Of a stretch of 46,011 nt of DNA, positions 36,772 to 39,827 are shown in pieces; position 1 is the first letter of the stretch; each line of letters begins with the position of its first letter. This DNA is from an uncultured Methanosarcinales archaeon (GTDB lineage Archaea; Nanobdellota; Nanobdellia; Woesearchaeales; JAGVZT01). The translations under genes were made by a program, and so were the position numbers. Location of the stretch: NCBI GenBank assembly GCA_964419615.1, contig CAYQPU010000010.1, positions 1 to 46,011 on the forward strand, given 5' to 3'. The notes beneath the pieces were generated by a model. It had not been told where the DNA came from. It saw nothing but the letters and a program-made list of their open reading frames with translations, and did no database searches.

Positions 36772-39156
36772 TTAATTACTTTTAAGTTTGATCTTATCTT
36801 TTCCAAAAGCGATAGTCTTAGCTTTGACAACAGCCTTAAGATCATCAATAACATGCTCAATCTTATCTTTGAATTCAGAGTTAATCTCAAGTTCTATCTC
36901 TTTTGCCAAACTAACTTTCTTATCTGTTTTGTACTTTCTTACTGCATCAATATAATCAATTGCTGTATTCCCAAACTCTTCACTTTTCTCGTCAACAAGA
37001 TTCTCATCAAAGTTTGGCCAGGACAAATTATGCACACTTTTTTCTCCTTCTCTTTGTCTAAAAAACATCTGATAAATTTCCTCAGTAATAAACGGCATAA
37101 AAGGGGCAGTGAGCTTTAATATGGTCAGTAAAGAATAATACAATGTATATTGGGCAGAACACTTGGCATCTTTTCCTCGTATGTCCGGATTATACAATCT
37201 ATCTTTAATAATCTCAAGATAATAATCACAAAAAACATTCCAAAAGAAATTCTCTGCTTCAGCCTTTACCTTAGAATACTCATACTTATCAAATGACTCA
37301 GTACAATTCTTAACAAGATTTTGAATCTTGGACAACATCCATTTATCAAAAACTTCCAGTTCAGGTTTGGAACCATCATACTCTTCCAGATGCATAATTG
37401 CGAACTTTGATGCATTCCATAATTTGTTAACCATCTTTTTGGCAGTAACCAAATCTTTTTCTTGGAATGGAAGGTCCTCTCCAAGCTTTGAACCAGCAGC
37501 CCAAAATCTTAAACAATCTGCACTATACTTTTCAATCATAATTCTTGGATCAATAACATTACCTTTTGACTTTGACATCTTTTTTCCCTTTGGATCAAGA
37601 GCCCAGCCAGAAACAACACAATCCTTCCATGGATTAACATTGCTATGCAATTGTGACTTAACAACAGTATTAAACAGCCAAAAAGTAATAATGTCATGTG
37701 CTTGTGGCCTCATACTCATTGGATAAAGTTTATCATACATCTCTGGCACCAGTGAAGCTGCAATCTGAGGAGTTAATGACGACGTTGCCCAAGTGTTAAT
37801 AATATCCGTCTCTGGAATAATTTCAGCACAACTACATTTTGGACATTTATCAACTGGTGCTTTATCAACTATAGGATCAACAGGTAAATCAGCTTCATTA
37901 GCAATAATAATCTCATCACAATCTTTACAATACCAAACTGGAAATGGAATACCAAAATAAATCTGCCTTGAAATACACCAATCCCACTGCAGACCATTAA
38001 CCCAATTCTCATAACGATTCCGCATATGATCAGGATACCAATTCAACTCTTTACCCCACTTCATCATATCTTCCTTTAAATCAAGATACTTGATAAACCA
38101 CTGCTTTGAATGAATAAACTCAACCTCAGTTCCACAACGTTCATGAACATTAACAGAGTGAGTAATTGGTTTTTGATTTCTAAGTAAACCTTGAGTTTTC
38201 ATATCCTCAATAATCTTATTTCTTGCATCCTTCATATCCATTCCCTGATAACTTTTTGCAATTTCTGTCATCTTACCATCTTTGGCAATTGCCTCTCTAA
38301 TTGGTAGATTGTATGCTTTTTGCCATTCACAATCAGTTGAATCACCAAAAGTACAACACATAACAATACCCGTTCCTTTCTCTGGATCAGCTCTTTCATC
38401 CTCCATAATTGGAACTTCTAAATCAAACAAAGGAACCTTTGCTTTTTTACCAAGCAAATGCTTGTACCTAGGATCTTTTGGATTGTAAAAAACAGCAACA
38501 CATGCTGGTAAAAGCTCTGGTCTGGTAGTTGCAATAAGTAATTCCTCACCATCAACAGAAAACACAATATCATTAAAATGAGAAGCCTTCTCAGCATCCT
38601 CACACTCAACTTGTGAAATAGCTGTCTGACATTTTGGACAAAACATAGCAGGAGCTTTTGTTCTATATTCTCTACCTGATTTATACAAATCAATAAATGA
38701 CTTTTGTGAAATCTTTCTTGGTAAATCCTTAATTGTCTCATACATTAAATTGAAATCACAACTCATACCAATCTTTTTCCAATCAGAAACAAAATCATCA
38801 ATAATCTCTTCATCTAAAACCTTCATGCAAAACTGTCTAAACTTTTCTCTACCCATATCAACAGCACGAACATTCTTAGTTCTTTCAATTAATAGCTGAG
38901 TAGGTAAACCATTCCCATCTGCTCCAAAAGGATAAAAAACAGAAAAACCTGCCATTTTTTTATAACGAGCAATAAAGTCTTGTTGTGAATATGAAAAAGC
39001 ATGACCCAGATGCATTCTGCCTGAAACAGTAGGCGGAGGGGTATCTATGCTGTAGATTGGTTTATTAGAATTCTTGTCAAAACTAAATATACCTTCGTCT
39101 TGCCAAAACCTCTGCCACTTAGGCTCACTTTCTTTTGAATCATAATGTTTTTTCAT
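36772..39156 (-). CDS. valS: Valyl-tRNA synthetase
   Basis: DTPPPTVSGRMHLGH (HIGH), DWCISRQ, KMSKS. SD GGAGGT at 39169-39164 supports ATG 39156. Confidence 0.97.
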   Translation of the reverse strand: MKKHYDSKESEPKWQRFWQDEGIFSFDKNSNKPIYSIDTPPPTVSGRMHLGHAFSYSQQDFIARYKKMAGFSVFYPFGADGNGLPTQLLIERTKNVRAVDMGREKFRQFCMKVLDEEIIDDFVSDWKKIGMSCDFNLMYETIKDLPRKISQKSFIDLYKSGREYRTKAPAMFCPKCQTAISQVECEDAEKASHFNDIVFSVDGEELLIATTRPELLPACVAVFYNPKDPRYKHLLGKKAKVPLFDLEVPIMEDERADPEKGTGIVMCCTFGDSTDCEWQKAYNLPIREAIAKDGKMTEIAKSYQGMDMKDARNKIIEDMKTQGLLRNQKPITHSVNVHERCGTEVEFIHSKQWFIKYLDLKEDMMKWGKELNWYPDHMRNRYENWVNGLQWDWCISRQIYFGIPFPVWYCKDCDEIIIANEADLPVDPIVDKAPVDKCPKCSCAEIIPETDIINTWATSSLTPQIAASLVPEMYDKLYPMSMRPQAHDIITFWLFNTVVKSQLHSNVNPWKDCVVSGWALDPKGKKMSKSKGNVIDPRIMIEKYSADCLRFWAAGSKLGEDLPFQEKDLVTAKKMVNKLWNASKFAIMHLEEYDGSKPELEVFDKWMLSKIQNLVKNCTESFDKYEYSKVKAEAENFFWNVFCDYYLEIIKDRLYNPDIRGKDAKCSAQYTLYYSLLTILKLTAPFMPFITEEIYQMFFRQREGEKSVHNLSWPNFDENLVDEKSEEFGNTAIDYIDAVRKYKTDKKVSLAKEIELEINSEFKDKIEHVIDDLKAVVKAKTIAFGKDKIKLKSN

Positions 39157-39217
39157 CTTAATAACCTCCATTAATAGCTGATATATAAAATTAACTAGAG
39201 AAAACACAATGAGGGGC

Positions 39218-39247
39218 TCAAGCCACCACTACAACAACATGTGTCAT
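39218..39247 (-). CDS. Putative valS leader peptide MTHVVVVVA
   Basis: ATG ACA CAT GTT GTT GTA GTG GTG GCT TGA: five consecutive Val codons, 61 nt upstream of valS and 30 nt downstream of a TATA box. Confidence 0.7.
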   Translation of the reverse strand: MTHVVVVVA

Positions 39248-39269
39248 GCATATATGAAAAATTTGTTTA

Positions 39270-39277
39270 TATATAAA
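39270..39277 (-). promoter_or_regulatory. TATA box for the leader-peptide/valS transcript
   Basis: TTTATATA; its first T is 30 nt from the uORF ATG, the same spacing as other apparently leaderless genes here. Confidence 0.6.
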
Positions 39278-39377
39278 ATTTATGTAAAATTCTTTCATCT
39301 AACAAAATTGATAAATTATACATAAATATATAATTCTAATTAGATTCTCTTTTGCTAAACAATTGACAAGTAAGACT

Positions 39378-39827
39378 ATGAATGCTCAAGATAAATTAAG
39401 GGAATTAAACATTTACTTAGATTCAATAGAAGCTGTTTTTCAAATATTTGAATCTTCTACAAATTACGCTAAGTTTGAAGATAACTGGAGAAAAAGTACA
39501 GTATATAATGCAACTGGACTGGATCAATTCTTAACTGCGTTTTTTTACAGGATTCAAGAAAAAGATGAAAGAATTGTAGTGGATGGTGTGAAAACTCTTG
39601 GGCAATACATGGATGAGCAAATAATAAAAGAATACTTAACAACAGATGGAGATCCTACCATGATCTTCTTCTCAGGTTACCCTGAAATTTCAATTGATAA
39701 AAGAAACAAGTTTTTTGATGAAGCTCGGCAATTTTCTTTAGATACTGTACGGGAGTATTTAGGTATTAAATCAACTAAACATCAATCCCATAATTATCAA
39801 ATAATAAATCCTCAACAGATTCTTTAA
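39378..39827 (+). CDS. Hypothetical protein
   Basis: About 150-aa ORF; its 3' end overlaps the convergent PolB-like gene by 53 nt. Confidence 0.6.
   Translation: MNAQDKLRELNIYLDSIEAVFQIFESSTNYAKFEDNWRKSTVYNATGLDQFLTAFFYRIQEKDERIVVDGVKTLGQYMDEQIIKEYLTTDGDPTMIFFSGYPEISIDKRNKFFDEARQFSLDTVREYLGIKSTKHQSHNYQIINPQQIL

Follow-up and report, generated by a model that had tools for sequence, protein, structure and literature searches.

A valine-codon leader upstream of valS in a woesearchaeotal archaeon as a candidate amino-acid-sensing regulator

Leader-peptide attenuation is a textbook bacterial mechanism, and how archaea adjust the levels of their aminoacyl-tRNA synthetases to amino acid supply is, to our knowledge, largely unknown. 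The window analyzed here, which is the whole 46,011-nucleotide stretch of DNA, comes from a small DPANN (Woesearchaeota) archaeon and raises this question at valS, the gene for valyl-tRNA synthetase. Does a short frame of valine codons upstream of the gene allow ribosomes to gauge valine supply and, if so, which step of valS expression does it control? A full-text literature search returned no description of leader-peptide attenuation in archaea, in agreement with the first-pass annotation of this DNA, which had named no established archaeal equivalent.

A valine-codon frame between two predicted promoters

The valS gene (36772–39156, minus strand, ATG at 39156) encodes a protein of 794 aa whose translation matches the Pfam domains tRNA-synt_1 (3.5e-86) and Anticodon_1. 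It is preceded on the same strand by the frame that the first-pass annotation had described, which can be read directly from the sequence at 39247–39218, stop included: MTHVVVVVA, nine codons of which five are for valine. Its ATG (39247–39245) is followed by ACA, CAT, the valine run GTT GTT GTA GTG GTG (39238–39224), GCT, and the stop codon TGA (39220–39218). The small hairpin GGC-UUGA-GCC, also noticed earlier, occupies 39224–39215 of the minus strand, with the stop codon in its loop and its 5' arm within the last valine codon and the alanine codon. Further along the same strand lie a TCATTGT box (39212–39206), which begins 8 nt after the first base of the stop codon and is invariant in the three valS leaders described below, a pyrimidine box TTTTCTCTA (39204–39196), which is a candidate anti-Shine-Dalgarno (anti-SD) element and/or U-rich termination signal and has an alignment-invariant core TTCTCYAG, and the valS Shine-Dalgarno sequence (SD) GGAGG (39169–39165). 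The SD is found in both the sequence and the alignment and is complementary to the 16S 3' end GGATCACCTCCTTTTTT on contig C1. Other reading frames are also open across the leader bases (MHDTCCCSGGLSPSLCFL, then a stop).

Two further genomes of the family carry the same frame before valS: MICVVVVVA in genome G001 and MSQASLVNVVVVVL in genome G003, each followed by a stop codon. Aligning the valS upstream regions, a check proposed with the original observation, gave a valine run with synonymous variation in all three genomes: four of the five wobble positions vary and none of the ten first and second positions, and the probability of four variable sites all falling on wobble positions is 5/1365. 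Of the roughly 3,260 short ORFs in intergenic regions of the genome, only the valS leader has a run of four or more valines. The alignment indicates that the leader frame is real and conserved, and that its valine codons are under selection as codons. In addition to these three valS leaders, we found one diverged candidate (L066; MIMRVNVILVVQ, then a stop). No convincing leader was present at the ValRS gene of genome G004 (72% identical) or at 45 or more further valS loci that we inspected, a scarcity that counts against the regulatory account given below. In a metagenome search for five valines, any residue, and a stop followed by TCATTGT, all of the 80 loci inspected were microsatellite-like or coding chance matches, none with a ValRS gene.

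To locate promoters, we scored positions with a matrix built from 84 leaderless genes of the genome (mean training score 15.7, sd 2.6; random positions reach 4.6 at the 99.9th percentile). A distal promoter, P1 (39284–39270, minus strand), consists of a BRE-like CATAAAT and the TATA box TTTATATA (39277–39270) and scores 18.3. This TATA 8-mer ends 22 nt before the leader ATG, which is the modal leaderless spacing in the genome (84 genes, with 23 nt in 40 genes). As the implied transcript start coincides exactly with this ATG, the valS leader ORF is probably leaderless and at the 5' end of its transcript, as the first-pass annotation had proposed. A second TATA box, TTTATATA (P2; 39189–39182, minus strand), likewise recognized earlier, precedes the valS ATG by 25 nt and has been retained in all three genomes; its score is 8.0, with an implied start 3 nt upstream of that ATG. 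Given this conservation, a weaker promoter of its own probably serves valS as well (P2 8.0 vs. P1 18.3), so that the gene need not depend on the leader. Transcription that starts downstream of the frame, from the proximal TATA box only, had been named as an outcome that would speak against a regulatory leader; the proximal box is indeed conserved, but this does not overturn the leader, as both promoters can coexist.

Cognate leaders at other loci and their common layout

A scan of other synthetase genes for frames rich in cognate codons, also suggested from the valS locus, was positive. Including valS, the genome has at least six leaders whose codons match the amino acid of the downstream enzyme, with gene identity by Pfam. 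Before their stop codons, they end in LTTTTTTA (thrS; T6), QSSSSSQSS (serS; S5), MMTSMLAMRMR (metS; five internal Met), SIISIII (ileS; IISIII), and ANAFFNN (asnA-asnS). These six synthetase-type loci compare with about 1.2 of 17 expected by chance, with a joint probability of about 3e-8. The PEP carboxylase gene of the genome also carries an equivalent leader, as probably does the lysW operon, while no leader was seen at proS, glyS, hisS, aspS, lysS, gluS, leuS, argS, tyrS, trpS, alaS, pheS, pheT, or cysS. An RRR-stop leader precedes a gene for a small HExxH protein, whose matches in a protein atlas were only unnamed viral-type clusters.

Leaders of thrS, metS, and ileS are conserved across the family and occur in four further families of the order: thrS leaders in 8/8 family genomes (weak in G005) and in families f8 and f22, ileS leaders in five family genomes and in families f20 and f6, and metS leaders in five family genomes. 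Those of asnA and of the PEP carboxylase gene were found in four and three genomes, respectively, and the serS leader was absent from 29 relatives. The leader peptides have nothing in common except the cognate run. Two fully inspected loci from a list of further G003 candidates, drawn up from the pattern of a stop followed by TCATTGT, lie within coding sequence and were rejected.

The layout of these leaders is shared. A TATA box is followed after 22 nt by a leaderless ATG, a cognate run near the end of the frame (one to three codons before the stop in every leader), a GC hairpin on or beside the stop codon, UCAUUGU 7–11 nt after the stop, a pyrimidine tract, a second TATA box, the SD, and the gene. 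P1 scores range from 11 to 18 over the six leaders, and the implied start falls on the leader ATG in 5/6, the exception being thrS, where it lies 2 nt before. Stop hairpins of −4 kcal/mol or lower are present in 67% of 27 leaders vs. 11–13% of control stops (Mann-Whitney p = 3.6e-9; p = 5e-4 for the eight leaders of this genome alone), and their position is kept among orthologues while their sequence differs. In eight leaders of the genome, TCATTGT lies 7–11 nt past the stop codon, and it is fixed relative to the stop, not to the proximal promoter, which is 7 to >150 nt away; the conserved box and pyrimidine tract together span 7–25 nt after the stop. The motif is not overrepresented genome-wide (345 occurrences vs. 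about 340 expected), and we rejected it as a general 3'-end signal, given that it follows 11 long-ORF stops vs. a median of 11 for permuted hexamers. No Rfam family, including T-box, Thr_leader, and His_leader, reached threshold in the window or at the six leader loci, where matches with E values up to 10 were noise.

A frame of only nine codons, with other frames open over the same bases and with valS leaders from only three genomes, could be a chance frame in AT-rich intergenic DNA, or could encode a peptide or RNA with a function unrelated to valS. We disfavor such a reading and regard it as very improbable: at six loci the leader is rich in the amino acid that the downstream enzyme uses, variation is confined to wobble positions, the alternative frames are not kept in G003, and the peptides resemble each other in the cognate run alone. 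Given that the valS leader is conserved and is one of at least six own-amino-acid leaders, it is very probably a ribosome-read gauge. We are confident, short of certainty, that it is a cis-acting, amino-acid-sensing regulator, and regulation in cis by ribosome stalling is very likely.

Termination, translation, or promoter interference

As to the step controlled, we prefer premature termination over masking of the SD and start codon or promoter interference, a tentative assignment to which we give somewhat less than even confidence. A ribosome stalled on the valine run would cover the 5' arm of the hairpin and abut the UCAUUGU/U-rich signal, so that the P1 transcript would escape intrinsic or FttA/aCPSF1-dependent termination and read on into valS, past its SD. 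When Val-tRNA is plentiful, the ribosome would depart, the hairpin would form, the signal would be exposed, and the transcript would end, while the weaker P2 promoter would supply basal leaderless valS mRNA. By analogy, and in line with the first-pass annotation, valS would be induced upon valine shortage. The genome encodes a homologue of FttA/aCPSF1 with KH_TffA, MBL, beta-CASP, and RMMBL domains. In archaeal termination, U-tracts are bound by FttA/aCPSF1 (PMC8716108), and a coupled ribosome has been proposed to exclude this factor (PMC11616081). We consider the account as a whole, in which the leader gauges the supply of charged tRNA-Val and sets valS expression via termination at the hairpin/UCAUUGU signal, slightly better supported than not.

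Several observations bear on termination. The predicted valS stop hairpin is weak in two of the three genomes (−2.9 kcal/mol here and −1.6 in G003, vs. −9.8 with 6 bp in G001), which argues against this reading, and in the leaders the small hairpin does not adjoin the short U/C tract, as the UCAUUGU box lies between them. The U-rich tract that the first-pass annotation had placed at 39209–39197 stood in part: a T4 tract is present within 39204–39197, but it is short and is not conserved as a run (U4 here, UU in G001), whereas TTCTCYAG is conserved. A consensus scan for bacterial-type intrinsic terminators, with a GC hairpin directly followed by a U run, returned 0 sites between leader and gene, and neither MFE nor RNAalifold folds contained a consistent alternative helix that could act as an antiterminator. 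The sign of the response could equally be the opposite, with a stalled ribosome uncoupling from the polymerase and favoring factor-dependent termination.

Alternatively, the transcript may always reach valS, with UCAUU masking the start codon, UCUCYAG masking the SD, and leader ribosomes opening or closing this mask, either by stalling, as in the mycobacterial polycysteine leaders, or by terminating at the stop beside the box (translational coupling). This alternative appears unlikely, though it deserves serious consideration. RNAalifold predicts both helices from the three valS orthologues, with one two-sided and two one-sided compatible changes in the UCUCYAG:SD helix, and in the full valS leader the SD and AUG are mostly paired (predicted unpaired probabilities 0.15 and 0.23), a state of the read-through RNA that sits badly with simple read-through giving a translatable mRNA. 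In ileS, where the isoleucine run pairs with the SD, SD accessibility climbs from 0.02 to 0.33 once a stalled ribosome is modeled, and in thrS from 0.45 to 0.7; the SD is moreover conserved even though the proximal TATA box would yield leaderless mRNA, and a mycobacterial precedent exists (bioRxiv 10.1101/834739). On the other hand, a modeled ribosome on the run opens no SD in valS, serS, metS, or asnA. For valS, it had been proposed that CCCCTCATT, which is present at 39216–39208 of the minus strand, contributes an anti-SD pairing of CCCCUCAUU with AAUGGAGG and that a stall on the valine codons frees the SD. Neither proposal was supported: the three orthologues favor the UCAUU:start codon and UCUCYAG:SD helices instead, and the modeled ribosome leaves an unpaired probability of 0.15 vs. 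0.17 and 0.12. Anti-SD pairing was also rejected as a family-wide feature, as pairing between the post-stop and start regions was no better than in dinucleotide shuffles (mean z = −0.42, 25 leaders), and leader SD accessibility did not differ significantly from that of other SD-led genes (0.25 vs. 0.39, p = 0.08, n = 6). The cognate run itself acted as anti-SD, according to the mycobacterial model, in silico in ileS alone. Finally, UCAUU would be covered only by a ribosome at the stop codon, and therefore valS translation would fall when Val-tRNA is scarce, an odd logic. A separate pairing, between the leader 5' AUGNNN and NNNCAU of the box, extends to 8 bp in the thrS leader of genome G006 and to 6 bp in serS and in the G003 valS leader; it had a permutation P of 0.02 with a heuristic choice of start, and weak overall support.

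Promoter interference would place the control elsewhere. The valS gene would be expressed leaderless from the proximal promoter, which would be on when P1 polymerases stop before the P2 TATA box and off when they cross it; a stall would uncouple ribosome from polymerase, and FttA would terminate transcription, inducing valS upon starvation. The proximal TATA box is conserved in all valS, thrS, and metS leaders, proximal promoter scores reach 11.9–14.4 in metS, ileS, and serS, and the post-stop signal lies just upstream of the proximal TATA box. Further, read-through valS RNA appears, from the modeled folds, to be translationally masked, and the direction matches the ribosome-exclusion idea for FttA (PMC11616081). 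We nevertheless judge this mechanism improbable. Leaderless mRNAs would not include the strong SD, which is nevertheless conserved, and few genes in the genome (nine, strict criteria) combine an SD with a TATA box at leaderless spacing, so that the SD is arguably used on longer transcripts. The asnA gene has no proximal promoter (score −0.5) although it has a leader, and the thrS proximal TATA box lies 17–43 nt from the ATG.

Under the preferred reading of termination control, the leader set of this genome has a simple common anatomy built from archaeal parts, namely TATA/BRE promoters, leaderless initiation, and U-tract/FttA termination. It is conceivable, though still short of probable, that Woesearchaeales (DPANN) run a ribosome-read amino-acid regulon that comprises at least six synthetase loci, PEP carboxylase, and probably a lysine-pathway operon, in which the hairpin-stop and UCAUUGU, as a common lineage-specific RNA signal, couple stalling to FttA-/U-tract-dependent termination. 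If true, transcription attenuation in Archaea would have its first mechanistically distinct form, and transcription-translation coupling would be directly shown to serve gene control in this domain. Confirmation would extend ribosome-based sensing of tRNA charging to the third domain, offer a natural system for testing transcription-translation coupling in archaea and FttA "polarity," and imply that DPANN cells, often seen as passively host-dependent, monitor individual amino acids. The leaders are short enough for reporters in Methanococcus, Thermococcus, or Haloferax.

Comparison with known attenuation systems

Rho-dependent attenuation controls tnaC-tnaAB in E. coli, where the signal is free tryptophan, sensed via the nascent TnaC peptide instead of cognate codons. 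As in that system, a factor entry site right after the leader stop could be masked by a held ribosome, which compares with the 7–11 nt spacing of UCAUUGU, but the factor is Rho in tnaC-tnaAB and putatively FttA/aCPSF1 here. E. coli pheM-pheST likewise has a synthetase as the downstream gene and the ribosome as a gauge of charged tRNA, as proposed for valS. T-box riboswitches of Gram-positive synthetase genes share amino-acid-specific control of synthetases by tRNA charging; in contrast to the leaders described here, they bind uncharged tRNA directly, without translation.

The classical attenuators of amino-acid operons include trpL, hisL, thrL, and ilvL (as reviewed in bioRxiv 10.1101/834739). 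In the bacterial attenuators, the leader ORF is SD-led, and a terminator hairpin running directly into a U run competes with an antiterminator helix. The valS leader, in contrast, has a leaderless ORF, a TATA/BRE promoter, a second promoter before the gene, a single small stop hairpin, UCAUUGU before a short pyrimidine tract, and no detectable antiterminator. Its host also differs, being an archaeon whose polymerase terminates at U-tracts with FttA.

Also similar in form are the mycobacterial polycysteine leaders, or "ribulon," which are leaderless short ORFs with consecutive cognate codons at the 3' end, and in which several loci form a ribosome-read regulon with an SD-led gene downstream (bioRxiv 10.1101/834739). 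The cysteine attenuators act on translation, with the downstream SD base-paired to the Cys tract itself (bioRxiv 10.1101/834739), whereas in the valS leader the predicted SD partner lies downstream of the stop codon, beyond the reach of the stalled ribosome. The woesearchaeotal leaders also differ from the mycobacterial type in their targets, which are synthetases for six different amino acids.

Leader and predicted promoters upstream of valS

The minus strand upstream of valS (ATG at 39156; 794 aa, a class I ValRS by Pfam) encodes a leader ORF at 39247–39218, ATG ACA CAT GTT GTT GTA GTG GTG GCT TGA, which reads MTHVVVVVA and a stop. Given that the divergent gene (39378–39827, plus strand; a 149-aa protein without a Pfam match) starts at 39378, the 221-nt spacer between the two genes contains promoters in both directions; this neighbor does not adjoin valS in G001, a genome of the same genus. 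The elements reported in the first-pass annotation were found in place, namely a GGC-UUGA-GCC hairpin at the leader stop, CCCCTCATT (39216–39208), a U-rich tract (39209–39197) seen as a T4 tract, a second TATA-like box (TTTATATA, 39189–39182), and the valS Shine-Dalgarno (SD) sequence (GGAGG, 39169–39165), and the observation of the leader is confirmed.

The genome holding this contig, G000 (1.48 Mb, 64 contigs, ∼33% G+C), has Candidatus Woesearchaeota and Nanoarchaeota MAGs as its closest named records, and a MAG from Suakin Deep (Red Sea) belongs to the same genus. Its order has more than 30 sampled families, with genomes of 0.6–2 Mb. In G000, the 8-mer TTTAWAWA peaked sharply at 22 and 23 nt upstream of start codons (84 and 40 genes, respectively), a spacing that is the geometry of leaderless mRNA, and other starts had SD motifs peaking 5–7 nt upstream. 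These classes were almost exclusive, with 194 leaderless genes (TATA 8-mer 22–23 nt before ATG) and 189 SD genes (SD 5–7 nt before ATG); under strict criteria, TATA at the leaderless distance together with an SD was rare (nine genes), and by our reading valS, serS, metS, and ileS are among these nine. The BRE "AA" at −34/−33 was conserved at 90% and T at −1 at 69%. A promoter matrix trained on the BRE, TATA, and −12/−11 TT region of 84 leaderless G000 genes (training mean 15.7, sd 2.6; 99.9th percentile of random positions, 4.6) scored the distal valS box at 18.3, with an implied start exactly on the leader ATG, and the proximal box at 8.0, the latter implying initiation 3 nt upstream of the valS ATG. 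These scores and positions predict that the leader ORF is leaderless, and valS probably has an additional, weaker promoter of its own.

Some 50 valS loci were examined, taken from relatives and from public MAGs. Two more genomes of the G000 family carried the leader, G001 (MICVVVVVA) and G003, which represents another genus (MSQASLVNVVVVVL), and a diverged candidate was present in one more distant MAG (L066; MIMRVNVILVVQ). An alignment of valS upstream regions, proposed in the first-pass annotation as a check, showed the Val run kept in three genomes with synonymous variation only: of its 15 bases, four of the five wobble positions varied, and the ten first and second codon positions were identical. 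Alternative frames across the leader were not kept in G003, and TCATTGT, TTCTCYAG, the proximal TATA, and TGGAG were invariant. The valS loci of other relatives had no Val leader, including that of G004, though its ValRS is 72% identical, and had a TATA box 22–24 nt before the valS ATG; given this arrangement, the leader looks like a module added before an ordinary leaderless valS promoter. At the valS loci of G016, G022, and G032, the ValRS match fell into two pieces ∼100 nt apart within one continuous frame of 842–861 aa, which indicates an insertion of ∼35 residues after about residue 230.

A family of cognate leaders

Every short intergenic ORF of G000 was screened for two features, amino-acid runs and TCATTGT after the stop, and downstream genes were identified by Pfam. 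The same design as at valS was found at further loci, and the suggested search of other aminoacyl-tRNA synthetase genes for cognate-codon uORFs proved positive at thrS (MVAKNILGFEVLTTTTTTA), serS (MNIYMNQSSSSSQSS), metS (MKSNHSLKMMTSMLAMRMR), ileS (MKYCRKSIISIII), and asnA-asnS (MAKQIKYQVQVCLANAFFNN). No cognate leader was found in G000 at proS, glyS, hisS, aspS, lysS, gluS, leuS, argS, tyrS, trpS, alaS, pheS, pheT, or cysS. With the composition of 3,007 short intergenic ORFs as chance model and at least three cognate residues in the last ten of the uORF as criterion, ∼1.2 of 17 loci were expected by chance vs. six observed, mostly with far longer runs, and the joint chance for the six was ∼3 × 10⁻⁸. 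Distal promoters of six G000 leaders scored 11–18; in five of them the implied start coincided with the leader ATG, and in thrS it lay 2 nt upstream of that ATG.

All eight family genomes had a Thr-run leader before thrS, though that of G005 was weak (MATRNDVSRTATTF), as did G014 and G028 from two further families. Ile-run ileS leaders were present in five genomes of the family and, outside it, in two more families (G026, G012). Met-rich metS leaders (...SMLAM.M...) occurred in five family genomes, and asnA leaders ending ...NN(Q) before the stop in four genomes. G006, an unpublished genome, supplied one of the thrS and one of the asnA leaders, and none of our conclusions rests on these two. 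At the metS locus of G003 (L145), a GC-rich, strongly self-complementary insert of ∼150 nt (GTCAAGAACCAC...GTGGTTCTTGAT) separates TCATTGT from the metS promoter. In G001 (L144), the metS leader lacks a stop before the box, its frame passing through CTCATTGT and ending 10 nt later (...NSMLVMGMRYVHSLFC and stop), a natural variant that could reveal whether stop-to-box spacing matters. Among 30 genomes, only G000 had the serS leader. The G000 SerRS (C5:20552–21829) differs in type from that of its closest kin, sharing only about 46% identity with the enzymes of its own genus and family but 63–75% with those from several other families, and serS looks to have been replaced or transferred.

Leaders also preceded genes of other functions. 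The leader of an archaeal-type PEP carboxylase (G000 contig C12:16600–18500, locus L080; MSLTININNTDCDSQ) recurred in G001 and G003 (L322 and L323; MSQTITFNNNDCDSQ, MRWVICDYNCNDDTDR); the C-terminal halves abounded in Asn, Asp, and Thr codons and a covarying helix, CUAYUCG/CGRRUAG, adjoined the SD, which suggests aspartate-family sensing at the oxaloacetate-making step. Just upstream of this leader lies a tRNA gene (L080:12–149, minus strand; C12:16611–16748) that probably contains an intron, given that its Rfam match spans 138 nt vs. a 71-position model. At lysW-like and homocitrate-synthase-like genes (C1:57000–60200, L079), MRDNMIMAKSKFKLEQR and its stop are followed by TCATTGT; Lys codons are few (K-x-K-x-K) and promoter geometry is ill-defined, and therefore membership of this locus is uncertain. 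Two paralogous small HExxH protein genes (C12:9300–10000, L081; C44:3900–4600, L082), encoding 103 and 110 aa without a Pfam match, follow leaders ending ...LVRRR, then TCATTGT and an SD. Their protein-atlas matches were only to unnamed viral-type clusters, and the leader may be arginine-read, before an unknown, possibly mobile-element, gene.

Signals after the cognate run

The cognate run ends one to three codons before the leader stop, which lies in the loop of a small GC-rich hairpin or directly before it (ACAGC-GUAA-GCUGU, AGCC-UGAAAAA-GGCU, GGCC-CAUA-GGCC, GUGGC-GUGA-GCCAC). Hairpin sequence differs among orthologues and its position is kept. A hairpin with an energy of −4 kcal/mol or lower that began between −14 and +8 nt relative to the stop was found in 67% of 27 leaders vs. 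11–13% of stops in the long-ORF and short-ORF controls (Mann-Whitney, p = 3.6 × 10⁻⁹ for the 27 leaders, kin among which are non-independent; p = 5 × 10⁻⁴ for eight G000 leaders alone).

Beyond the hairpin, most leaders in G000, G001, and G003 had (Y)UCAUUGU 7–11 nt after the stop and then a U/C-rich tract, followed by the proximal TATA box and a strong SD. The box was not enriched after the stops of ordinary G000 genes. It lies 7–11 nt from the stop, but its distance from the proximal TATA ranges from 7 to >150 nt. The box thus follows the site where translation ends rather than the downstream promoter, and this speaks for a function at the RNA level.

Candidate mechanisms and known systems

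Ribosome, hairpin, and box share one geometry across all leaders. A ribosome held on the cognate run would cover the 5′ arm of the hairpin and extend as far as the UCAUUGU box, or nearly so; one that finishes and leaves would allow the hairpin to form and bare the box and pyrimidine tract. In our preferred reading, ribosome position would decide whether the distal transcript ends there. Archaeal termination occurs at U4-type tracts read by aCPSF1/FttA (PMC8716108); FttA binds U-rich RNA 30–36 nt behind polymerase, and a coupled ribosome has been proposed to block its access sterically (PMC11616081). A full FttA homologue is encoded in G000. Against termination at valS, two of the three genomes have only a weak hairpin, and the U-rich tract noted earlier, although present, is short and variable among genomes. 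The reading is also weakened by the valS leader, where no bacterial-type terminator and no antiterminator was found, and by the read-through valS RNA, which looks masked: across the three valS leaders, RNAalifold placed the valS start codon in a helix with UCAUU and the SD in one with UCUCYAG, and the unpaired probability of the SD was 0.15.

These same helices speak for translational control, in which the leader ribosome would govern masking of the valS SD and start codon. This explanation is incomplete, as a modelled ribosome on the run freed the SD in ileS (0.02 to 0.33) and thrS (0.45 to 0.7) but not in valS, serS, metS, or asnA, and pairing between post-stop and start regions across the leader family was no better than composition predicts. 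The first-pass interpretation is partly supported: the evidence favors a conserved, probably leaderless Val leader, but not release of the valS SD by a ribosome stalled on the Val run. A third reading is factor-dependent polarity acting in its natural direction, in which stalling would uncouple the ribosome, FttA would end the distal transcript, and the proximal promoter would be spared interference; it accounts for the conserved proximal TATA but leaves the conserved SD unaccounted for.

Whether or not termination at the box is the means, amino-acid sensing by the leader ribosome is very likely. The leaders match no Rfam family, and leader-peptide attenuation was not reported for Archaea in the full-text literature searched, which covered a minority of subscription-journal papers. 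We conclude that they very probably represent leader-peptide sensing in an archaeal form that is leaderless, spans several loci, and has its own conserved RNA signal. Among bacterial systems, the pheM leader of Escherichia coli pheST comes closest, together with classical operon attenuators; nearest in architecture are the mycobacterial leaderless poly-Cys ORFs (bioRxiv 10.1101/834739), and nearest in geometry is tnaC, in which the factor site abuts the stop.
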